A DNA stretch of 40,915 nucleotides. Origin: a virus. Position 1 is the stretch's first letter. Every line of letters starts with the position of its first letter. Where the stretch lies: IMG/VR virus record IMGVR_UViG_3300045988_069369; one strand, 5' to 3'. Under the pieces are notes generated by a model. The model saw only the letters and a list, made by a program, of their open reading frames with translations, was not told the origin of the DNA and made no database searches. This document shows, one piece after another, positions 1,790 to 40,915 of this stretch. The position numbers were made by a program, and so were the translations under genes.

Positions 1790-4700
1790 AATTCTTCCAC
1801 GATCTTTAAGAGTGGTTTTATATGTCCGCCAATCCCTATATCTTTAACGAGTAATCCACCATATACCTCAGCAATAGGAATATCTCCCCAATCTTGAGTG
1901 TTAGATGTGCCCGAAAAAGTATTTTTACCATGCACCGAGAATAACCTTGTATCTTTAGAATCATATAAAATAAACGCGTCAGCGTTTATTTTAGCTTCGG
2001 ATGTAGGTTTGTTTTCTACCGTGTTGAAAAGAGTAAATTTTACACCAGCCTGTCTACTATTATCACTTTTTCTAATGTTAAAAGCGGAAGTCAGATATTC
2101 TTGAGAGAAAGTGTCCTTACCAAGATAAGTTGTAATTTCAAAGATTTTGTCATTTGCGACACGTTGTATGTATCCGTAATTATTATTAAAAGTTAGTGTT
2201 CCTCCATTTAAATCAAATACAGTCGCTCCGTTTGTGCTCCTTAATTGTCCCCCGCTAATCATATTCGCTGTGATAGCTCCTGCCGATATCTTATTACTTG
2301 TGATAGCTCCGTCGACAATCATGTCACCTTTGACTTTTATCTTGTCAGAGAATAAGTTGATAGCATTTTGGTTAACAGCAAAATAAGAACCGATAGCGTT
2401 AGCAACATCAGTTGTTGACTTGCCAGCTTTCATGACAATTCCATCTGTATTAATCGTCAAGCTAGCGCTCTTAACCGTCGTGCTGTCTAGCGTATTGACA
2501 CCAGCTTGAGCTGCATCAGCTTTTGAAACAGCTGTGTTTGCTGTTGATTGTGCTGTGTTAGCTTTGGTCTCTACGCTTGACACGCTAGCAGTGATTGCGT
2601 CGGTTGTTTGTTTGATTTCAGACTGCGCACTGGCTAGCTTGCTATCGTAGTCTTCGGGAGCAGGTGTGTAATCTGTAGATACTTTCCCGCGTTCTAGCTT
2701 TATTTTGCTGTATTTAGTTGGATAAGACACTTTTGCATAAGTAGCGTTGGCTGGACTTGTGTATTGTCTGCCACCTTTTAAGTTAGCAGCTGTTGCTGCC
2801 CCAGTCGGTCGACTTATCCAACCACTGTAATCGTTAATGTTGCTACTGTACCAAGCTAGCGAATACCACATATTAGTTTCAGTTACGTCTTCATAAGTAG
2901 TTAATGTATAGACTGTTGACGGCTCAATTTTAATCCAGTCTGTCAACATATGATTCGTGTCTGCAATTGGCTGTATTCCCATCGAAAGACGTGAACCTAC
3001 TTGTGCTGTTGATTTGATAATCAAATTCTTAGCACCTAATTCAGTCGGAATCTTACCCTCAACACTCGTAATCTTACTGCTCAATTGGTTAGCTGTCGCT
3101 GTCAAGTTGCTTTCTGCAGTCGTCACACGACCGCTTAGTGTGTTGAAATCAGATTGTGAAACCTTAGCTTGCAAGCCTGTATTCAATGCGCTGATTTGAG
3201 TCGTGTGTGTACTGATTGTTTGTGCGTTATTGTTAGCAGTGGCTTGTGCATTATCAGCTTTGCTTGTGGCTGTAGAAATACCAGATTGCAAATCAGACTT
3301 AGCGGCGTTTAGCTCTGTCTTAGTGGCAAGCAAAGTCATGCCGTCTGCGGTTTGCTGAATTTGACTAGATAGCGAGCTGATTTCTTCAATGGCATCTTCT
3401 GGTGCTGGAGACCAGTCGGTGGCTAGACTGCCACGTTCGATTTTAAATGGGTCTCCGTACACACCATCGAAGCTTACTTTAAAATAAGACACATCATTGG
3501 TTAAAGTGATTGTTTTAACAGTTTTAGTGTCTTTAGTGTACGAGATAACATCGCGTCCCATAAAATTCTTATTAGCGTCATATTTAGCTAACCTCAACCA
3601 CTCTAAATTTCCCGCCGCAAATTTTGGCGCTGTGATTGTAAATTGTTTGTTATTCGTCCCATCAATAAACCCAGTCGTAAATTGAGTGGTAGCAGTTGCA
3701 AGATTGCCGTTTGCATCAATATAACCATTTTGAATTTGTGATCGGATAATTAAATTCCGCCCACCGAGACTTTTTGGAATCTTACCTTCGACCGCAGACA
3801 CTGCACTTGTAATTTGACCAGGAACTGCTTCGATTTTTGTCTGCAAACTGCTAATGTTGCCGTTTGCTGTTTGCAGATTACTTTGCAAGTTAGCTACTGC
3901 TTTATCATTGCTAGCTTGATAGTTAGCCAGGTTGGTTTTAGTCGTATTGGCTGTTGTGGTCGTTGCTGTTAAGTCATTACGAATGCCAGTCACATCACTT
4001 GTATATGTTGACTTAGCCACATAATCCTTAGCAATCGCTGTACGTTCAGCAGTCAATTGACGTGCTGTTTCGGTCTTAGCGCTCTCAAAGTATTGGTTAG
4101 CCCGTGTGGTTTCCCCATCTTTGTATGTTTCAAGCGATTCAATACGTGTGCTGAAACCTTTCGCTGTTTGGTCTGCGACAGTCTTGTTCTGCTGCACTGT
4201 TCCGTCTAGATTTTGGACAGTCGTTTGCAAACTGGCGTAGTTTTGGTCTGCGGTCTGCTTGTAATCAGCCACTTTTTGCTCGAGGTCAGCTTCGTTTGGA
4301 CTGTAATCAGTTGCAACGTTGCCACGTTCGATTTTATTACAAGTGTAATAAACAAACTTACCACTTTCACTGTTTGTCGTCTGCTCCCAGCCAAGATAAT
4401 TAACACGATGGTCTTCTGACAACATTTTTTCCGTAACAGTGAATGTAACGCTAACTTTTTGCCATTCATTTGTTAAGTTGATTCTTTCAGCTTTTCCGCT
4501 TATGTTCTCTGTATCACTTTGATTATTATAGCGAACAAATAAACGAGACTGAATCGGCGTTTCTTGGTCAGTCTTAGCCAAAACGGAATATGTCAAAACA
4601 TCACCGACTTTTAGCAGTCCTCGCTCAACTAAATGATTGTTTAGATTAATACCTAATCTGTTCCAAACTCCTTGAGTTTTGTATACAACTGCACCGTTGT

Positions 4701-6969
4701 AAGTTTCGCTTGTTTTTGCTGTGCCGTAAAACTGATAATATCCAGTTTGAGGCGCTTGCCAAGGGTCTGCAGAATATAACAAAAGGTTAGTGCCACCGAT
4801 TTTTAAATTTTCAAACTTCGCACTCAGCCCATTCAACCCAATTTCAAGCGTTGCCGTTTTTTGACTAGCGCTGTTAGCTGTTGTCTGAACTTGTGATAAT
4901 GTCGTTTTAGTGCTCGTTAAATCATCTTCGACCGTCTTAGTTCGTGCAGTGACGCTTGTAATGTCTTTGCCATTTTGGGCTATTGTTTTGCTTAATTCGC
5001 TCACTGTCGCCTTCGTCCCATTTGCGGTTTCTTCAACAGTTGAAACACGACTGGTTAAATCTGCTTGTGCGCTAGCTTGTGCTTGTAACTGATTAGCTTG
5101 GCTAGTCAAGTCTTGCTTAGCTTTAGTTAAATCACTTTGCAAGTTAGTAGCTTTCGTATCAACTTCGCTAACTGCGTTTTGCAAGTCTGTTTTTGCTTTA
5201 GACAAATCGTTAGCAACTGCGGCGAGTTGCTCCTTAGCTTCATTGACTGCTGCAAGCGAATCATCTCGCACTTTCTCGATATTGGCTGATAAAGCAGTCA
5301 ATTCTTGTTTAGCTTTGTCAAGTGCTTCTGTGATACCTGTCGTGTCAGCATCCAGACCGTCATCCCCTCGAGCGCCAATAACAGCTGGTTCAGTAACTAA
5401 ACTTGTGTCATTCGTGTACGTGATGACGTCGTACGACCACATATAGTTTTTGTCTGCTGTAACAGTCGTTGGTTTAGTAGACCAGTTTTGACCGCCTGTT
5501 GTGACACCATCTGACTGGTCGTTAGTCGTGTAATAACGTTTGATTGATTTAATACCAACACCGTCGTCAGAATTGGTGAATGTGATGTATTCACGAGCCA
5601 CCTCGTTACCGCCAACAATTGCAACTGCCACAACATTTAGCGTGCCAGTGACTTGGCTAGCGTTGATTGTAACACTTGATGTTTCGCTGACAACGCTGTT
5701 ATTGATAAGCCATTTCCAATCTGCATTAACAATCTTGCTATACTTTTCAAGCTTAGCTGTGATTGTGCTTGAGCCTTGACCGTTTTTAAAATTAAAACCA
5801 TTGTTAGTTTCTAGGCGGATAATGTACGGTGCTGCCTCATTTGCTAACTGTTCAACTTGCTTAAGTAATTCGCTAGCAACTTGTGAATACTTGCGCTCGA
5901 AGTTAGTAAGCGTTGATTTTGTAACTCTACCAGTGATTAAATCTTCGGTAAGCTCCGAAATGCGAGCCTGTACGTAAAGTGGAGGGTCGTAATGCACGTC
6001 GTCAATCAAAGTACGTGTGTCGCCAACATCTCCGTTGATAGCCCCCTCGATATCGTATGTAATTTCTGGCAAACAAATCTTTTTAAGTTCCCCAAGCATG
6101 TAGCCCCAGAGAGCCTCTTTGGTGCTGTATTCGGTTTCTCCTAACTCTTTAATAATCCAGTTATCATTTGATTTCTTGCCGACTGATGGGTACTTATCAC
6201 GGCTTTGGGGTGCATAGACTGTATTCGCATTAGAATAGTAAAGCAGATTGCCGTCATCGTCATAGACTTTTTTGTTCAGCCCATCAAGAGTCAACCCGTC
6301 CTTACCAGTAGCACGCACCGCTGTGCGTAACTCCTTCAAATTATCGCTATAATTAATGACTTTTAAGCCACGTCCAACACGAATTGGACTAGCAGCACGA
6401 TTAGAACCGAGATTGCCTTTCTTATAGACGTTCAATACTTGACGTTTTAACGAGTAGTCTTGGTTCAATTCGACAGTAAATTCAAGTTCTGCATCAAAGC
6501 TGTTAGCAATTGAGAAAAGACGTGCCAGAATCGTGTCTGTGCCAGTCCATTCAAGTTTGATACGTTTATCTGCTACTTCATTAATACCAAGCTCTAAGGC
6601 GTGTTCTGGGTCGTAATAAGCCAAATATTCGACGAAGCTCATTGCATTAGCTGGCTTGTGCGCCCCCCGCTCTTCTTGATTAAGCTCTAGGCCAATAGAA
6701 TAAGCTGTTATTTCAACCTTATAGCCCTTTTTGCTCAAATCCATGATATTCAACCAATAAGGACGCCCTTTGTAGATAAAAGCAAGCTTGCAGCCAGTTC
6801 TGATGGTATCAATATCTTTTGAATTGTACTCGATTGTCAAAATGCTAGCTGAACCAGCCAAGAAACGCTGTAGATTAGCGCTCTGATAGCGAATACCAGA
6901 AATATTATCAAAAAAAGCTACATTATGACTGTCTGTTGAATCACGAATTGCAATACGTACGTTTTCCAT
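1759..6969 (-). CDS. Tail-associated host-recognition protein (Tal-like N-terminal prophage-tail domain, long coiled-coil stalks, three CBM-like modules, C-terminal tip)
   Basis: 1736-aa track ORF directly after Dit. The N-terminus MENVRIAIRDSTDSH...GRPYWLNIMD is typical of siphophage minor structural/Tal proteins. There are Ala/Thr/Gln-rich heptad regions and a thrice-repeated module ending K(I/L)ERG..(A/S)TD(Y/W)(S/T)P..ED. Confidence 0.85.
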   Translation of the reverse strand: MENVRIAIRDSTDSHNVAFFDNISGIRYQSANLQRFLAGSASILTIEYNSKDIDTIRTGCKLAFIYKGRPYWLNIMDLSKKGYKVEITAYSIGLELNQEERGAHKPANAMSFVEYLAYYDPEHALELGINEVADKRIKLEWTGTDTILARLFSIANSFDAELEFTVELNQDYSLKRQVLNVYKKGNLGSNRAASPIRVGRGLKVINYSDNLKELRTAVRATGKDGLTLDGLNKKVYDDDGNLLYYSNANTVYAPQSRDKYPSVGKKSNDNWIIKELGETEYSTKEALWGYMLGELKKICLPEITYDIEGAINGDVGDTRTLIDDVHYDPPLYVQARISELTEDLITGRVTKSTLTNFERKYSQVASELLKQVEQLANEAAPYIIRLETNNGFNFKNGQGSSTITAKLEKYSKIVNADWKWLINNSVVSETSSVTINASQVTGTLNVVAVAIVGGNEVAREYITFTNSDDGVGIKSIKRYYTTNDQSDGVTTGGQNWSTKPTTVTADKNYMWSYDVITYTNDTSLVTEPAVIGARGDDGLDADTTGITEALDKAKQELTALSANIEKVRDDSLAAVNEAKEQLAAVANDLSKAKTDLQNAVSEVDTKATNLQSDLTKAKQDLTSQANQLQAQASAQADLTSRVSTVEETANGTKATVSELSKTIAQNGKDITSVTARTKTVEDDLTSTKTTLSQVQTTANSASQKTATLEIGLNGLSAKFENLKIGGTNLLLYSADPWQAPQTGYYQFYGTAKTSETYNGAVVYKTQGVWNRLGINLNNHLVERGLLKVGDVLTYSVLAKTDQETPIQSRLFVRYNNQSDTENISGKAERINLTNEWQKVSVTFTVTEKMLSEDHRVNYLGWEQTTNSESGKFVYYTCNKIERGNVATDYSPNEADLEQKVADYKQTADQNYASLQTTVQNLDGTVQQNKTVADQTAKGFSTRIESLETYKDGETTRANQYFESAKTETARQLTAERTAIAKDYVAKSTYTSDVTGIRNDLTATTTTANTTKTNLANYQASNDKAVANLQSNLQTANGNISSLQTKIEAVPGQITSAVSAVEGKIPKSLGGRNLIIRSQIQNGYIDANGNLATATTQFTTGFIDGTNNKQFTITAPKFAAGNLEWLRLAKYDANKNFMGRDVISYTKDTKTVKTITLTNDVSYFKVSFDGVYGDPFKIERGSLATDWSPAPEDAIEEISSLSSQIQQTADGMTLLATKTELNAAKSDLQSGISTATSKADNAQATANNNAQTISTHTTQISALNTGLQAKVSQSDFNTLSGRVTTAESNLTATANQLSSKITSVEGKIPTELGAKNLIIKSTAQVGSRLSMGIQPIADTNHMLTDWIKIEPSTVYTLTTYEDVTETNMWYSLAWYSSNINDYSGWISRPTGAATAANLKGGRQYTSPANATYAKVSYPTKYSKIKLERGKVSTDYTPAPEDYDSKLASAQSEIKQTTDAITASVSSVETKANTAQSTANTAVSKADAAQAGVNTLDSTTVKSASLTINTDGIVMKAGKSTTDVANAIGSYFAVNQNAINLFSDKIKVKGDMIVDGAITSNKISAGAITANMISGGQLRSTNGATVFDLNGGTLTFNNNYGYIQRVANDKIFEITTYLGKDTFSQEYLTSAFNIRKSDNSRQAGVKFTLFNTVENKPTSEAKINADAFILYDSKDTRLFSVHGKNTFSGTSNTQDWGDIPIAEVYGGLLVKDIGIGGHIKPLLKIVEELCQKTGILWV

Positions 6970-16474: not shown

Positions 16475-16649
16475 TTTCTAATTCCTCCCATGCTAGTCTT
16501 GTGTCACCCTAAATTTCCAGCGCATGCATAGAGCCACGAGAACGGACGTCTCACGCCCTCTAGTCTCTATTTAATGTAATTCTATTCAGGACTTAACAAG
16601 CCACGCTAGTGATGTTTATTTGGCTTATTTAACGACCAGCCAAGTCAAC

Positions 16650-16722
16650 GGGGAAAAGCAGGATTCGAACCTGCGCCTACAGATTAAAAGTCTGCCGCAT
16701 TAACCTCTTTGCTACGTTCCCC
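16650..16722 (-). tRNA. tRNA-Lys (anticodon UUU)
   Basis: The minus strand reads GGGAACG-UA-GCAA-AGAGGUUAA-UGC-G-GCAGA-CUUUUAA-UCUGU-AGGC-GCAGG-UUCGAAU-CCUGC-UUUUCCC-C. The cloverleaf has U8, G18G19, U33, A37 and a GTTCGAATC T-loop. The acceptor stem has one C-U mismatch and one G-U. No CCA is encoded. Confidence 0.75.
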
Positions 16723-36375: not shown

Positions 36376-37107
36376 TTAATTGTCTTTGTTATTTTCGTTC
36401 AGTAGCTTATTGGCGAAATATAATTGACCTTTGCCAGTGATTTTAGGTGTTTTATTAATACTGATGTGACCATCTGAATGGTTGATAGCCGTTTCTTTGA
36501 TTTCAAATAATCCAAGCTCCATTGATTTTTGTGTCGGCATATTTCTATTGCTACCTTGGCGATTGATTAGATAGCCATTTTCTCGCAACCATGCAAACAT
36601 TCGATTTTGACCTAAGTTGATGCCGTTTTGGCGCATAAGCTTAGCAAATTCACCAACTAAAATAGACGTCCGACTTGCGCTGACTGCGTTAGCGAAGATG
36701 ACTTTAGGTCTTTGTTCTTCGATTGTTGCCTCCAGCTTAATAATTTTACGGTCGGCAATTTTAAGAGCTCGAGCCATGATTTTCTCAGGACTATTAAAAT
36801 CTTTTTCGACTTGAATGAAGTATTGACGAACCTCTTTGCCTTTGTCGGTTTTAGTCATCATTGCAATATGCTTAGCCATATCGATAGATAGTGTATAATC
36901 ATCTAAATATTGAATGCGCCCGTTTCCGTTTTTTATGGGTGTACTTTCGGGTACATCCATAAAATCATAACCCTCGATAAACATATCTAGATATTGTCCG
37001 AGCCACGCACTAAAGCGTTTCTTAACTCCCAAGGCTTGATGAAGTTGACGACCTGAAATGACAGGCTCTTGGTTCTCGTTTAAAGTTACGTTAATTAATT
37101 CGTTCAT
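36376..37107 (-). CDS. Phage antirepressor (N-terminal Bro-N/AntA-like plus C-terminal KilAC/ANT domain)
   Basis: Track ORF. ...ISGRQLHQALGV... is at the N-terminus, and ...ILVGEFAKLMRQNGINLGQNRMFAWLRENGYL... at the C-terminus. Confidence 0.75.
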   Translation of the reverse strand: MNELINVTLNENQEPVISGRQLHQALGVKKRFSAWLGQYLDMFIEGYDFMDVPESTPIKNGNGRIQYLDDYTLSIDMAKHIAMMTKTDKGKEVRQYFIQVEKDFNSPEKIMARALKIADRKIIKLEATIEEQRPKVIFANAVSASRTSILVGEFAKLMRQNGINLGQNRMFAWLRENGYLINRQGSNRNMPTQKSMELGLFEIKETAINHSDGHISINKTPKITGKGQLYFANKLLNENNKDN

Positions 37108-37120
37108 GTGTTATCCTTTT

Positions 37121-37360
37121 CTAATTATGTTCAATGTCTTGAATGCAATGTTTAAAAAAATATGAATTAATTTCATTATTTGGAATATGCAACAGTTCGC
37201 AAGCTTTTGAAATTTCTTGCTGTTGCCAACTACGTTTGTTGTTGGTTTTGGAAGATATCGATTTTTCAGATAAGTTCATGTTTTCTGCGAACTTTTTCTT
37301 TGTGCCAAAAACCTCAACGATTTTACCGTTCAATTTAGAATAATCATATTTGTAAACCAA
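37121..37360 (-). CDS. DUF739-like small HTH regulator (start moved to the TTG at 37360 behind AAGGGGTG)
   Basis: Track ORF 37121..37387. The sequence (M)VYKYDYSKLNGKIVEVFGTKKKFAENMNLSEKSIS...YFF resembles the DUF739 family. Confidence 0.6.
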   Translation of the reverse strand: MVYKYDYSKLNGKIVEVFGTKKKFAENMNLSEKSISSKTNNKRSWQQQEISKACELLHIPNNEINSYFFKHCIQDIEHN

Positions 37361-37408
37361 ATGGTCACCCCTTTTCTTTTTGTTCAACTTATTGAACTTT
37401 ATGTTTTT

Positions 37409-37437
37409 ATTATACAGTGCAAGAAAGATAATGTCAA
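37409..37437 (-). promoter_or_regulatory. Consensus promoter TTGACA-N17-TATAAT
   Basis: The minus strand reads TTGACAttatctttcttgcactgTATAAT. Confidence 0.8.
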
Positions 37438-37543
37438 GTATTTTTGTTCAATTTTTTGGACTTTTTTTACTTTTATATTGAACTTTTTTTGAACATGCAC
37501 TATAAAATGGAACTTTTTTAAAGTTTTTGGACACGTTTTGGCC

Positions 37544-37570
37544 ATAAAAAAACACCCGAATAATCGGGTG
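37544..37570 (-). terminator. Intrinsic terminator (second of a tandem pair)
   Basis: The minus strand reads CACCCGA-TTAT-TCGGGTG followed by TTTTTTTAT. Confidence 0.8.
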
Positions 37571-37588
37571 TTGCTGTAGGATAGATAA

Positions 37589-37614
37589 GATAAAAAAGTA
37601 CCTCGTGAGGCACT
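37589..37614 (-). terminator. Intrinsic terminator (first of a tandem pair) after 37638..37925
   Basis: The minus strand reads AGTGCCT-CACG-AGGTACT followed by TTTTTATC. Confidence 0.65.
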
Positions 37615-37637
37615 TTTATTATAACATATATTTTTGG

Positions 37638-37925
37638 TTATTTTGCAGTTACTTTCAATTGTTTTTGAATGTAATCAAGAATTGATTGAAAATCTTTTGT
37701 GATTTTAGCTTCTGTGCCATACAATCCTTTTTGAACAGAAACACGAAATTTGTATTCGTGTTCTGAGACTTTCAATCGTTTATATTCGGATGCCTCTGTA
37801 GAAAATGCGTCGTAATAAGTAAGTTTATTAAATTTATTTTTAAAATCCTCTACAGTGTTAAAATGCCTGATAAGATTTGCATATTGACTTTTGCTAACGA
37901 TGACTTTTCCTGTTTCGTTTTTCAT
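37638..37925 (-). CDS. Hypothetical early protein (95 aa)
   Basis: Track ORF with its own consensus promoter and terminators. Confidence 0.6.
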   Translation of the reverse strand: MKNETGKVIVSKSQYANLIRHFNTVEDFKNKFNKLTYYDAFSTEASEYKRLKVSEHEYKFRVSVQKGLYGTEAKITKDFQSILDYIQKQLKVTAK

Positions 37926-37964
37926 TTTGAATACCTCTTTTGTCTTTCTTTATCTTATGAATTA

Positions 37965-37993
37965 ATTATAATATATATATTATAATATGTCAA
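37965..37993 (-). promoter_or_regulatory. Consensus promoter TTGACA-N17-TATAAT
   Basis: The minus strand reads TTGACAtattataatatatatatTATAAT. Confidence 0.8.
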
Positions 37994-38123
37994 GAGTTTT
38001 TTACAAAGATTTTTTGCTTAACGTCCTCTGTTGGCTTTATTTTGGCTATTCCAATACCGATTGGAATAAGAATAGCCATGATAAGCAACTGCGCCTAAAT
38101 GGGCAAATTAATTTCTTGATAAA

Positions 38124-38465
38124 TCATTCTGTTAGCTCCTCGAATATAGGTTGTAGTCTTTCAGCCAATTCTTTATATTTTGCGTTTTTTCTTTCAAGAA
38201 TTTTCTTGCATTTACTCAAACTTCCTACGCCATAACTAGCACCACGCATAAGTAGCGAATGTGTTTTGTCGTCTTTGATTTTAATAGCTTTTAAAGTGTT
38301 CGGGTTAATTAAGAATTTTTCGCATGGTAAATTTTCAGCAAGTGCCAAGTAATCTTCGTGTTGCTTTAATTTTCCAACATTCCAAACAAAATAGCCAGCT
38401 GGAATTTTTTCAACTATTTCAAATTTGTAAGTGTTAAACGAAGTTTTTTCTGTAATGTATTTCAT
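38124..38465 (-). CDS. Hypothetical early protein (113 aa)
   Basis: Track ORF. Confidence 0.6.
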   Translation of the reverse strand: MKYITEKTSFNTYKFEIVEKIPAGYFVWNVGKLKQHEDYLALAENLPCEKFLINPNTLKAIKIKDDKTHSLLMRGASYGVGSLSKCKKILERKNAKYKELAERLQPIFEELTE

Positions 38466-38479
38466 GTTAGTACCTCTTT

Positions 38480-38716
38480 CTAGTCGTTAAATAATTCAGT
38501 AATGTCAGAGTAGTTTAATCCTTGTAATCCTTTCATCCTACTGTTAAATTCTCGCATGTCGTTATAATATTCAATAACTCTGTCATTATCTAAATAAGCG
38601 ATGTTGTCAGAAACCTCATAAATTCGTGATTCGGTCATCATAATATCAAGAGCCTGTTCAGCTGTAAGAAAAGCGTATGTTTTTGTATCGCGGTTAACAA
38701 ATAGTATTTTTTTCAT
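38480..38716 (-). CDS. Hypothetical early protein (78 aa)
   Basis: Track ORF with AAAGAGGT upstream. Confidence 0.6.
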   Translation of the reverse strand: MKKILFVNRDTKTYAFLTAEQALDIMMTESRIYEVSDNIAYLDNDRVIEYYNDMREFNSRMKGLQGLNYSDITELFND

Positions 38717-38894
38717 GTTTTTACCTCTTTCTTTTTGAGGTACTAAAAAAGTACCTATTAGCTGTTTACTATCTAGATACTTTTTGATATACTATTGATA
38801 TATCTTATTTAGATAGTAATGTTTACTTTAGGTGTTCATTCAAACTTTGGTCGGGGAGAATGAATACCTTTTTTTATTTTTTATTTATGATTAT

Positions 38895-38923
38895 ATTATA
38901 GTATATATAATACATATTGTCAA
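38895..38923 (-). promoter_or_regulatory. Consensus promoter TTGACA-N17-TATAAT
   Basis: The minus strand reads TTGACAatatgtattatatatacTATAAT. The -35 overlaps the stop of 38920..39111. Confidence 0.8.
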
Positions 38924-39111
38924 GAGTTTTTTGAAAATTTTTTTAAATTTTCTTGAATAAGTTTTTGTAATTCAAGTAAATCTTCTTTTGTGGCATTATT
39001 GCGAATAAAACCACGAGACGTTGACCTTTTGGTCAGATAATTTCTGTGTTCTCTGTTTCTTTCATTCCATTTTTTGTTAGCTCGTTGTTGAGCTGTTAAT
39101 TCTTCTGTCAT
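38920..39111 (-). CDS. Hypothetical basic early protein (63 aa), first gene after the non-coding region
   Basis: Track ORF with AAAGGAGAA upstream of the ATG. Confidence 0.6.
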   Translation of the reverse strand: MTEELTAQQRANKKWNERNREHRNYLTKRSTSRGFIRNNATKEDLLELQKLIQENLKKFSKNS

Positions 39112-39147
39112 TTGTTCTCCTTTTGTATTTATTTATTTTATAAATTA

Positions 39148-39176
39148 ATTATAATATATATATCATAATATGTCAA
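39148..39176 (-). promoter_or_regulatory. Consensus promoter TTGACA-N17-TATAAT (first early promoter)
   Basis: The minus strand reads TTGACAtattatgatatatatatTATAAT. Confidence 0.8.
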
Positions 39177-39254
39177 GAACTTTTTTACAAAATTTGATAT
39201 TTTTTTAATTTCTAGTTTGTTGAATCGGACTTTTTGATTTGGTGGCCATAATAA

Positions 39255-39286
39255 CAACAAAAAAAGAGCTAACAAAATGTTAGCCC
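39255..39286 (-). terminator. Intrinsic terminator closing the large non-coding unit
   Basis: The minus strand reads GGGCTAAC-ATTTT-GTTAGCTC followed by TTTTTTTGTTG. The core is nearly identical to the terminator at 22692-22722. Confidence 0.8.
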
Positions 39287-39316
39287 CTCATCACATATCC
39301 CCTCGGGGGTATGGAT

Positions 39317-39346
39317 TTATCACAAATTTAAAACAACTAACTAAAT
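39317..39346 (-). repeat. 3' arm of the 30-bp closing helix
   Basis: Minus-strand RNA AUUUAGUUAGUUGUUUUAAAUUUGUGAUAA pairs with the 5' arm through 27 Watson-Crick and 3 G-U pairs. Confidence 0.85.
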
Positions 39347-39862
39347 GAGCCTTCGCTCTGCTTCAAATATATGCAACTTATTAGCTGATAGTCGTCTTAG
39401 GTCTGAGCTACGAGGAGCTACCTCATAACTTCCTAAGAGGTTCAATGACTAGACAGGACTGGTTACCTTCAACGTTCACCCAACATTCAGAAACGTAAAT
39501 ATGTGACAATATCTCCAATTTATCACTTGCGCTTTTGGGCTACTTGTACAATTTTTTGGTGTAAGCAACGAGCTTTTAACTCGTCAATGCGCACAATGGC
39601 TTATTTTGACAACTTCCTACTTGCTTCAAGTGGTCAAGTTTGGGCTTGCAGGATTATTTCTCACAGAGACGTCTATTATCGCCACCACCGTTTAAACTTA
39701 GCCTAGTTACACATATCCTCCACGTCACACGCACTCTTGCTATTCTTTCACTTCGCAACAATCAAAGATTGATTACTTATCTAACGACAGTATCCCACCG
39801 TTAGCGTAACGAGCTATTAAGCGTATAACTTTAGCATGCTGTCAAACAATCTTCACTAAATT

Positions 39863-39892
39863 ATTTAGTTAGCTGTTTTAAACTTGCGATAA
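39863..39892 (-). repeat. 5' arm of the 30-bp closing helix
   Basis: Minus-strand RNA UUAUCGCAAGUUUAAAACAGCUAACUAAAU. The arms differ at 3 positions, each a G in this arm opposite a U in the other. Confidence 0.85.
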
Positions 39893-39896
39893 CAAT

Positions 39897-39905
39897 ATTA
39901 TAGCA
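39897..39905 (-). promoter_or_regulatory. Extended -10 promoter (TGcTATAAT) for the large non-coding unit
   Basis: The minus strand reads atgTGcTATAATattgttATCGC. The -35 region (TTGTTT) is weak. Confidence 0.6.
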
Positions 39906-39922
39906 CATATTAACTTTTTAAA

Positions 39923-39950
39923 CAATAAAAAAGACTAACTAACGCTAGTC
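39923..39950 (-). terminator. Intrinsic terminator (second of two after the upstream small unit)
   Basis: The minus strand reads GACTAGC-GTTA-GTTAGTC followed by TTTTTTATTG. Confidence 0.65.
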
Positions 39951-39954
39951 CTGC

Positions 39955-40001
39955 AAAATAAATAATGAAAATTTAAACTGGTCGAATTCGACCAGTTTAA
40001 A
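39955..40001 (-). terminator. Strong palindromic hairpin terminator
   Basis: The minus strand reads TTTAAACTGGTCG-AATT-CGACCAGTTTAAA (13-bp perfect stem) followed by TTTTCATTATTTATTTT. Confidence 0.7.
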
Positions 40002-40161
40002 AGCATGGCTGGATAATCCTCCAGCGGGGTTAACGATTAGAGAGGAATGACTTCTCTAACTCCTCATTGTGCTTCTTAGGCTTATCGCCGAGGAACAGTT
40101 TTTAAGCTCTACCAAGCCACATAACGTGCTTCAATTATGCGTCCGTATTACTACGAATCCA
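39955..40161 (-). ncRNA. Candidate small non-coding RNA (about 200 nt) between the endolysin terminator and the large unit
   Basis: The promoter TTGACA-N18-TAGAAT lies at 40197-40168. No ORF is present. Hairpins include UCGUA-GUAA-UACGG (GNRA loop), UUAGAGA...UCUCUAA and GCUGGA-GGAUUA-UCCAGC, followed by tandem terminators. Confidence 0.4.
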
Positions 40162-40167
40162 ATTTCT

Positions 40168-40197
40168 ATTCTACACCATTATCACTTTTTTTGTCAA
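40168..40197 (-). promoter_or_regulatory. Promoter TTGACA-N18-TAGAAT immediately after the endolysin terminator
   Basis: The minus strand reads TTGACAaaaaaagtgataatggtgTAGAAT. Confidence 0.5.
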
Positions 40198-40229
40198 ACA
40201 AAAAAGCCCCAGCCACGAAGACTGGGGGT
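40195..40229 (-). terminator. Intrinsic terminator of the late operon (after the endolysin)
   Basis: The minus strand reads CCCCAG-TCTTCGTGG-CTGGGG followed by CTTTTTTGTTTG, 10 nt after the stop at 40240. Confidence 0.8.
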
Positions 40230-40239
40230 GTTAAGGCAT

Positions 40240-40915
40240 TTATTTAACTTTTAGCGTTTGACCGATGTAGATGAGATTAGCATTTGATAGACTGTTAAGA
40301 CTAGCGATTGATTGGTAGCTAGTGTTGTAACGGCTTGCAATAGCTGATAGGGTATCTCCTGCTCGCACCGTGTAATAAACTGACCCAGCGCTTGCTGCGC
40401 CGTTGACACGCAAGGTTTGCCCCGCAAAAATGAGATTTGGATTTGAAATACCATTCAAACTTGCTAACGCTTGATAGCTAGTATTAAATTTGGCAGCTAT
40501 ACTAGACAACGTATCTCCAGATTTTACCGTATACGTTCCGCCTGCTGCTGGTGCTTGGATTGGTGCAGATGAAACCGCGATGACCTCAACGTCTGATTTG
40601 TTGATCCATGAATTTACACCAGCTAGCAACACACGATTGCCAGATACTTGAGCCACATCGTATGTGCGACCTTTGGTCCAACTTGGGATACCTTGACCAG
40701 TCGCCCAGTTGTTAGCACTGAATTTAACCTTAACTTGGTTTCCTGTATTAATATCAGAATTAGGAGTGTTTTCTGCTTGTTGACCTTGACTAATAGCTGG
40801 TGTATTAGTCACTGGATTGTTGTTCTTAGTGTAACCATTGTCCGTGATACCAGTCAAGTCGATGTTACCGTCAAGACCGCCTGCGATATAAGTAGAGGTA
40901 AACTGATAGATAGAC
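40240..40915 (-). CDS. Endolysin, C-terminal part (SH3-like segment plus two LysM repeats); same gene as 1..721
   Basis: Track ORF 40240..40857 extended in frame to the window end. The LysM repeats are [43 protein letters not shown] and [43 protein letters not shown]. Confidence 0.9.
40797..40915. repeat. Second copy of the window-end duplication (equals 1-119)
   Basis: Same comparison as for 1-119. Confidence 0.97.

Follow-up and report, generated by a model that had tools for sequence, protein, structure and literature searches.

Within the 40,915 nucleotides of viral DNA analysed here (IMG/VR record IMGVR_UViG_3300045988_069369, hereafter the window), a minus-strand segment of about 635 nt begins with promoter-like letters, ends in a hairpin with a T-run and lacks an ORF of appreciable length. 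The original prediction, made by reading the letters, took this segment for the gene of a large, self-contained structured RNA that resembles ROOL and GOLLD and might even represent a new class. The questions are thus whether the segment indeed encodes such an RNA, to which family it belongs and what it could do for the phage. The locus is very probably a ROOL RNA gene (RF03087) of an S. equinus-type siphophage, which forms an autonomous unit and likely specifies an accessory RNA particle of the phage. A full-length match to the ROOL model, strand-specific folding energies and covariation among homologues all support a self-contained structured RNA on the minus strand.

Family assignment

When the whole window was scanned with the Rfam 15 models (cmscan), three matches exceeded the gathering score, namely ROOL, the Bacilli-1 RNA (RF02931, 40158-40094, minus strand) and one tRNA. 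The ROOL match spans positions 39884-39328 on the minus strand and reaches 245.7 bits (E = 6.4e-55), which is 2.5 times the gathering score of RF03087 (99.1 bits). It covers the model from end to end (positions 1-574 of 574) and is not truncated; the core of the RNA comprises 576 nt, and the family mean is 581 nt. The conserved ROOL motifs AAUAGACG, GUACAAGUAGCCC, UUCUGAAUG..GGGUGAA and GAGCGAAGGCUC were all aligned to the model. In a permissive Rfam scan of positions 39100-40300, no family other than ROOL matched the ROOL segment at E <= 1, and GOLLD gave no match at this threshold on either strand. The search of the minus strand with Rfam models, which had been proposed together with the prediction, thus identified ROOL as the only large-RNA family that matches, and of the two suggested resemblances the one to ROOL was borne out, whereas the one to GOLLD was not. 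Weak matches of mir-133 and FsrA to the hairpin region at 39969-40059 lie far under the respective gathering scores and are regarded as chance.

The gene therefore belongs to an already-known family, and the suggestion of a new class had to be abandoned. The ROOL family was described in 2017 by Weinberg et al. (PMC5737381) and occurs in phages and prophages, frequently close to tRNAs. The copy in the window shares with the family the full-length match, the size, the closing helix P1, the covarying multi-junction architecture and the conserved motifs, as well as a variable internal linker, the complementarities of the bridge loops and the location in a phage; it is an ordinary member of a family whose structure has been solved. 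It differs from the consensus in the hairpin at 39774-39760, which is shortened to 15 nt compared to about 26 nt (about 11 nt fewer), and in P1, which consists of 30 bp here and of 16 bp in the model. There is no adjacent tRNA gene, a neighbour that is typical of ROOL RNAs but not obligatory, and the phage genome that carries the copy is devoid of a lysogeny module. GOLLD is likewise a large ornate RNA of phages and prophages in Lactobacillales, which assembles into a 14-meric cage made of RNA only and contains a variable linker (PMC12286853); however, its sequence and secondary structure are unrelated to those of the ROOL segment. The coordinates of all features are collected in Table 1.

Table 1. 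Features of the ROOL unit in the window (positions refer to the whole stretch; bridge names follow env-120).
Feature	Position	Strand	Description and basis
ROOL unit promoter	39897..39925	-	Weak -35 and extended -10 element TGCTATAAT; predicted start about 39889-39893
ROOL RNA core, bounded by both P1 arms	39317..39892	-	RF03087 match, folding z-score, consensus structure
P1 5' arm (closing helix)	39863..39892	-	30 pairs; 91.7% of cells paired, 54 sequences
Candidate bridge B1, side one	39840..39843	-	GACA in hairpin loop 39845-39840; counterpart of env-120 A38-C41; complementary to UGUU 39485-39482
Candidate bridge B4, side one	39633..39637	-	UUGAC in hairpin loop; counterpart of env-120 G307-A310; complementary to GUCAA 39610-39606
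Candidate bridge B4, side two	39606..39610	-	GUCAA in junction strand; complementary to UUGAC; conserved kissing loop in env-120
Variable linker	39495..39534	-	Within long hairpin GCCCAA (39540-39535) ... UUGGGU; counterpart of disordered in-cage linker
Candidate bridge B1, side two	39482..39485	-	UGUU beside conserved CUGAAUG; counterpart of env-120 G465-U468; complementary to GACA
Candidate bridge B6 loop	39416..39420	-	UAGCU loop of hairpin AUGAGG/CCUCGU; counterpart of env-120 loop L18; self-complementary GC
P1 3' arm	39317..39346	-	Pairs with 39863-39892
3' tail hairpin	39290..39316	-	CCCC/GGGG core, between P1 and terminator, outside the conserved ROOL core; predicted fold
Intrinsic terminator	39255..39289	-	12-bp stem 39289-39263, then U-run; terminator scan and fold

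Genomic context and relatives

The ends of the window share a direct repeat of 119 bp, and the window represents the circular genome, about 40.8 kb in size, of an S. equinus-type phage. All genes are located on the minus strand. The endolysin gene, which encodes a GH25 domain and two LysM domains, is split across the window ends, stops at 40240 and lies upstream of ROOL. It is followed by the Bacilli-1 RNA unit, the ROOL unit, small early ORFs and the genes for a DUF739 protein, the antirepressor Ant and DnaD-like and DnaC-like replication proteins, and neither an integrase nor a repressor gene was found between the endolysin gene and the early genes in the window. The position after the endolysin gene is a classic slot for accessory genes in streptococcal phages. 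The sole tRNA, Lys-UUU, is encoded at 16649-16722, which is 22.6 kb away from ROOL.

A BLAST search of phage genomes revealed that positions 39318-39905 are 90-92% identical to segments of the S. equinus phages 36L, PY1-PY9, Bsingle and Pika (records PQ6217xx) and of the prophage Javan207 (MK448703). The homology coincides exactly with the stretch from the -10 box through the last P1 nucleotide; outside it the flanking DNA, which includes the 3' tail and the terminator, is unrelated. The ROOL RNAs of the S. equinus phages and Javan207 are found in the same place as the ROOL of the window, downstream of the endolysin gene; in 36L and Javan207, ROOL follows this gene directly, while it is located about 2 kb downstream in PH15, past small ORFs. 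PH15 and Javan246, both phages of S. gordonii, gave partial matches of about 70-77% identity. In the GenBank records of the S. equinus-phage relatives, the RNA is unannotated and several of them place hypothetical CDSs over it. Within IMG/VR, the ROOL of contig UViG_3300045988_052431 (40,951 bp) differs by one base, and a motif scan retrieved 107 loci, most of which are ROOL according to nhmmer; all 16 rescanned loci are full-length ROOL matches in Rfam with 245-362 bits. The clade of the window scores about 100 bits under the oral-streptococcus clade in this rescan. A scan of genome contigs with an 18-nt motif mostly retrieved chance matches in unrelated bacteria, and a few Streptococcus loci turned out to be real ROOLs.

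Transcription unit and composition

An extended -10 element had been predicted at 39905-39897, and the sequence TGCTATAAT is indeed present at this position. It is preceded by a weak -35 element (TTGTTT, 39925-39920) at a spacing of 17 nt; since this -35 element matches the consensus at only three of six positions, a simple promoter scan missed the promoter. Extended -10 elements function without a good -35 element. In each of the 54 aligned homologues, the motif TGnTAnAAT precedes the first P1 nucleotide by 12-13 nt, despite differing upstream sequences. At the other end of the unit, the terminator scan found a stem followed by a T-run where a hairpin with a U-run had been expected, and the stem folds as a 12-bp hairpin. 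T-runs occur 14-51 nt past P1 in 53 of the 54 homologues. The predicted ROOL transcript would thus start at about 39890 and end at about 39255, resulting in an RNA of roughly 635 nt from the minus strand. The gene downstream has its own promoter at 39176-39148, which matches the consensus at 12 of 12 positions. The conserved promoter, the following T-runs or terminator and the separate consensus promoter of the next gene indicate that the ROOL unit is autonomous.

The composition of the segment also agrees with the original prediction, which described it as free of ORFs and less AT-rich than the intergenic regions: the longest minus-strand ORF within the unit comprises 35 amino acids, and the G+C content of the ROOL core is 38.7% compared to 18.9% in the true intergenic spacer at 39112-39254. 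A coding-potential check, in which the homologues were compared, revealed no conserved ORF on either strand.

The closing helix P1

The two P1 arms constitute an inverted repeat of 30 nt (39317-39346 and 39863-39892), which is 90% complementary as DNA and the longest in the region 38900-40915. The proposed 30 consecutive pairs could be confirmed at every position: the minus-strand RNA forms 27 Watson-Crick and three G-U pairs (39887/39322, 39883/39326 and 39873/39336), and on the plus strand these three G-U sites become A-C mismatches. P1 cannot be extended at either end, and it corresponds to the outermost helix of the ROOL consensus. The asymmetry between the strands, with G-U pairs in the minus-strand RNA where a plus-strand RNA would have C-A mismatches, had been interpreted as a sign of selection on an RNA helix, and the comparative data bear this out. 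P1 is 91.7% paired over 54 homologues and compensatory double changes occur at 10 pairs; among its cells, G-U or U-G was counted 177 times compared to 10 cases of A-C or C-A. Family-wide, independent support comes from the published covariation table, which includes the env-120 P1 pairs 1/659, 3/657 and onward.

Secondary structure and covariation

The structure was tested with an alignment of 54 distinct Streptococcus-phage homologues, which essentially form two clades of 11 and 43 sequences, and the covariation counts given here consequently reflect few independent events. The structure projected from Rfam together with P1 is 75.8% paired over the 54 sequences, compared with 35-48% when the partners are slid, and its covariation score amounts to 0.237 compared with 0.04-0.09 in the slid controls. 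An independent RNAalifold run on the 54 sequences resulted in a consensus of 154 pairs, 67 of which show compensatory changes. Of the 141 pairs projected directly from the cmscan alignment, 112 are canonical and 29 non-canonical in the window sequence; most of the latter are register slips in parts of the alignment with low confidence, which were resolved by RNAalifold. The minimum free energy of the minus-strand RNA is -166 kcal/mol (z = -4.5), whereas the plus strand reaches -122.6 kcal/mol (z = -1.9).

Several internal helices had been proposed by eye. UCUUAGG/CCUAAGA, AUGAGG/CCUCGU, CUAACG/CGUUAG and GACGAG/CUCGUU are backed by the family model and by covariation, while AAUCAA-UCU-UUGAUU is confined to this clade and is a shortened form of a longer consensus hairpin. 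Two further proposals compete with covarying family helices and were rejected. The nested pairing of 39822-39812 with 39386-39376 is only 65% paired, and most homologues disrupt six of the 11 pairs; the strand 39386-39376 takes part in a different, covarying helix, whose other strand is at about 39706-39688 (alignment columns 187-205 and 551-572). The hairpin ACUUG-AAG-CAAGU is not conserved, and at its site the family structure contains the pairings CAA/UUG and GC/GC, which covary with CUU/AAG. The shortened hairpin at 39774-39760 and the lower model score suggest that some contacts may differ in the clade of the window.

Candidate contacts between copies and a possible cage

Cryo-EM revealed that the ROOL RNA env-120 forms a protein-free, hollow octameric cage of D4 symmetry, which is about 28 nm across (Kretsch et al. 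2025, PMC12286853, PDB 9MDS). The octamer stoichiometry of env-120 is kept down to 12.5 nM, monomers of ROOL are undetectable up to 55 C, and the non-conserved linker of env-120 is disordered within the cage (PMC12286853). According to the summary given in PMC12515178, the ROOL RNAs of E. faecalis and Firmicutes CAG:227 have also been solved as octamers (Ling et al. 2025), and 3' extensions of ROOL were shown to be tolerated (PMC12515178). In order to locate the counterparts of the env-120 bridges, the bridge residues were taken from Supplementary Table 2 of PMC12286853 and placed by local sequence context rather than by numbering, since the extracted env-120 text comprises 650 nt compared to 659 nt; env-120 is distant from the window sequence and can be aligned with it only via the family model.

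As judged from sequence, the complementary segments of three bridges, namely B1, B4 and the GC of B6, are retained in the window RNA. The pairs equivalent to B1 are paired in 99.5% of the cells over 54 sequences. Those equivalent to B4 are 84% paired over the same set, and UUGAC/GUCAA in the window is replaced by UAGC/GCUA in the oral-streptococcus clade, which is a compensatory change. Bridge B6 joins the two half-shells of the env-120 cage via G565/C566 (PMC12286853). The corresponding L18 loop is UUGCU in env-120; in the window it reads UAGCU and holds the 4-nt palindrome AGCU, and the neighbouring clade has UCGCU. Over the 54 sequences, UAGCU occurs in 11 and UCGCU in 43, and the GC is invariant. 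The complementarities of B1 and B4, which were published as pseudoknots and seen by cryo-EM as bridges between molecules, are candidate intermolecular bridges in the window RNA; by sequence alone, such a kissing loop looks the same as an intramolecular pseudoknot. The spacer between GUAGCCC and UUCUGAAUG, in which the variable linker resides, ranges from 31 to 69 nt over the 54 homologues and is not conserved in sequence.

By analogy with the solved homologues, the ROOL monomer of the window would fold flat, and eight copies would assemble into a protein-free hollow D4 cage of about 28 nm, a model extrapolated from distant homologues. Loop-loop bridges would hold this cage together, and the linker would point into the cavity. 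For ROOL in general, the literature contains the suggestion that the linker or other molecules are encapsulated. The weakest and most speculative step of the model concerns the function: most likely, an abundant accessory RNA particle of the phage would enclose or sequester a macromolecule of the host or the phage during infection. This role is favoured because the unit occupies an accessory slot, flanked by the lysis cassette and the early genes, and has a strong promoter of its own.

Alternative explanations

Instead of acting as a cage, the ROOL member might act in the cell as a monomer or a ribonucleoprotein, for instance as a ribozyme, a protein sponge or a ribosome-binding RNA, and the cage would then be confined to in vitro conditions. 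A small but appreciable probability is assigned to this explanation, since PMC12286853 and PMC12515178 report no cage in vivo and the clade of the window deviates by its shortened hairpin and lower model score. However, the concentration down to which homologues multimerise is far under cellular levels, monomers were undetectable even upon heating (PMC12286853), and the intermolecular contacts are conserved or covarying, the window sequence included. Furthermore, a conserved gene for a protein partner beside ROOL was not found at the loci of 36L, Javan207 and PH15.

It is rather improbable, yet conceivable, that the ROOL clade of the S. equinus phages is a structural variant with different contacts between the shells or a different stoichiometry, and that ROOL and Bacilli-1 constitute a non-coding island, which occupies, in a lytic phage, the place of the lysogeny module and acts early, e.g., against host defence. 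The 30-bp P1, the truncated hairpin at 39774-39760, the palindromic UAGCU loop and the absence of a neighbouring tRNA are the features that point to a possibly different assembly.

It is unlikely that the ROOL unit, which we regard as the source of an accessory RNA particle, is a coding gene or a cis-regulator. The records of 36L, PY1-PY9, Bsingle and Pika annotate CDSs for hypothetical proteins on the homologous segment, and minus-strand ORFs of 30-35 amino acids are present in the window; small proteins encoded by the segment are nevertheless a very improbable explanation, as the longest sense ORF lacks conservation and varies between 32 and 60 amino acids among the homologues, the indel lengths are not divisible by three, the substitutions are explained by the conservation of base pairs, and a model of a non-coding RNA matches the whole segment. 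Control of the downstream early genes in cis, with the unit serving as a leader or a riboswitch-like 5' UTR, is equally improbable. ROOL immediately precedes the first early ORF (39111-38920) and shares its strand; however, both the strong intrinsic terminator and the consensus promoter at 39176-39148 stand before this ORF, and the genes downstream of ROOL differ in other phages.

An element that acts as DNA and is bounded by the 30-bp inverted repeat, for instance a MITE, an origin or a site of recombination, would account for the long terminal inverted repeat and for the module-like behaviour of the segment, at whose edges the homology to other phages begins and ends. The probability of such an element is negligible. 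The imperfections of P1 are G-U pairs on one strand only, an asymmetry that persists in the divergence of the homologues, compensatory changes were found in P1 and at about 60 internal pairs, and the 5' edge of the module takes in the promoter. Moreover, the segment is present as a single copy in the window, and its homologues in 36L, Javan207 and PH15 are syntenic in that they share the region after the endolysin gene and do not reside at scattered loci, so that the MITE considered in the original prediction is disfavoured. A new class of large structured RNAs unrelated to ROOL and GOLLD is refuted by the full-length match and the aligned ROOL motifs.

Implications

As a discovery, the ROOL copy adds little, because the standard Rfam model finds it at once; the case nevertheless illustrates that inspection of a sequence by eye sufficed to detect a genuine RNA of large, structured type. 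With respect to the distribution of the family, it places ROOL in a phage that is free of a lysogeny module, with a conserved promoter of its own and no tRNA close by. The GenBank entries of related S. equinus phages call for a correction, as they carry genes for hypothetical proteins over the ROOL RNA. The cultured S. equinus phages 36L and those of the PY series possess a ROOL with 92% identity to that of the window, which would make the function of ROOL accessible to genetic tests.

Variation and annotation of ROOL in related phages

Related streptococcal phages carry ROOL RNAs that differ in both score and length. Members of the S. equinus-type clade score approximately 250 bits, whereas those of the oral-streptococcus clade reach approximately 350 bits, and a hairpin which comprises about 26 nt in the Rfam consensus and in the oral-streptococcus clade is shortened to 15 nt in the S. 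equinus-type ROOLs (Table). Length differences are also found in the linker (columns 377-445 of alignment A1): one close relative has a 25-nt insertion, another a deletion (L085, around 5200-5300; L083). This pattern fits a linker that would act as a spacer unconstrained in sequence or length.

The ROOL RNA of cultured S. equinus phages is 92% identical to that of the window; it is unannotated in their GenBank records (PQ621707, PQ621708-PQ621717), and CDSs of a 'hypothetical protein' overlie it, at 3305-3445 in phage 36L (L001, PQ621707) and at equivalent places in PQ621708-PQ621717. These CDSs are probably mis-annotations.

Genomic context of ROOL

The window ends in an identical 119-bp direct repeat (1-119 and 40797-40915), and the sequence is therefore a circular assembly of approximately 40.8 kb; the endolysin gene, which encodes a GH25 domain and two LysM repeats, is divided between the two ends. 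Every real-looking ORF of at least 70 amino acids is located on the minus strand. The sole tRNA gene is 22.6 kb away from ROOL, and the tRNA neighbourhood often seen for ROOL is thus absent in the window.

Between the endolysin stop (40240) and the ROOL promoter, the minus strand harbours a second unit devoid of ORFs (39931-40197). Within this unit, a Bacilli-1 RNA is preceded by its own promoter and followed by two terminator-like hairpins. The S. equinus satellite phages Javan201 and Javan203 are 94% identical to positions 39999-40158, and satellites of S. suis and S. uberis share 93% identity with positions 39955-40014. ROOL and Bacilli-1 also occur together in the related loci L035 and L085; scans of the remaining relatives did not find Bacilli-1 beside ROOL.

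Genes for an integrase or a repressor are absent from the interval 37107-40240, between the endolysin gene and the antirepressor gene Ant (36379-37107). The phage seems to derive from a temperate lineage and to have lost the lysogeny module, and the two RNA units appear to occupy the place where this module would be expected.

Two consensus sigma-70 promoters are each located where the early region starts and are probably early promoters; the spacers that hold them are very AT-rich (18.9% G+C for the spacer of 39148-39176).

Table. Features of the window discussed in the text
Feature	Position	Strand	Remarks
tRNA-Lys	16649-16722	-	anticodon UUU; among structural genes
Sigma-70 promoter	38895-38923	-	perfect TTGACA-17-TATAAT
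Sigma-70 promoter	39148-39176	-	perfect TTGACA-17-TATAAT; precedes small ORF 39111-38920
Shortened ROOL hairpin	39760-39774	-	AAUCAAUCUUUGAUU
Terminator-like hairpin 2	39952-39931	-	
Terminator-like hairpin 1	40001-39972	-	perfect 30-nt palindrome
Bacilli-1 RNA (RF02931)	40158-40094	-	73.6 bits vs 55.6
Bacilli-1 unit promoter	40197-40168	-	TTGACA-18-TAGAAT
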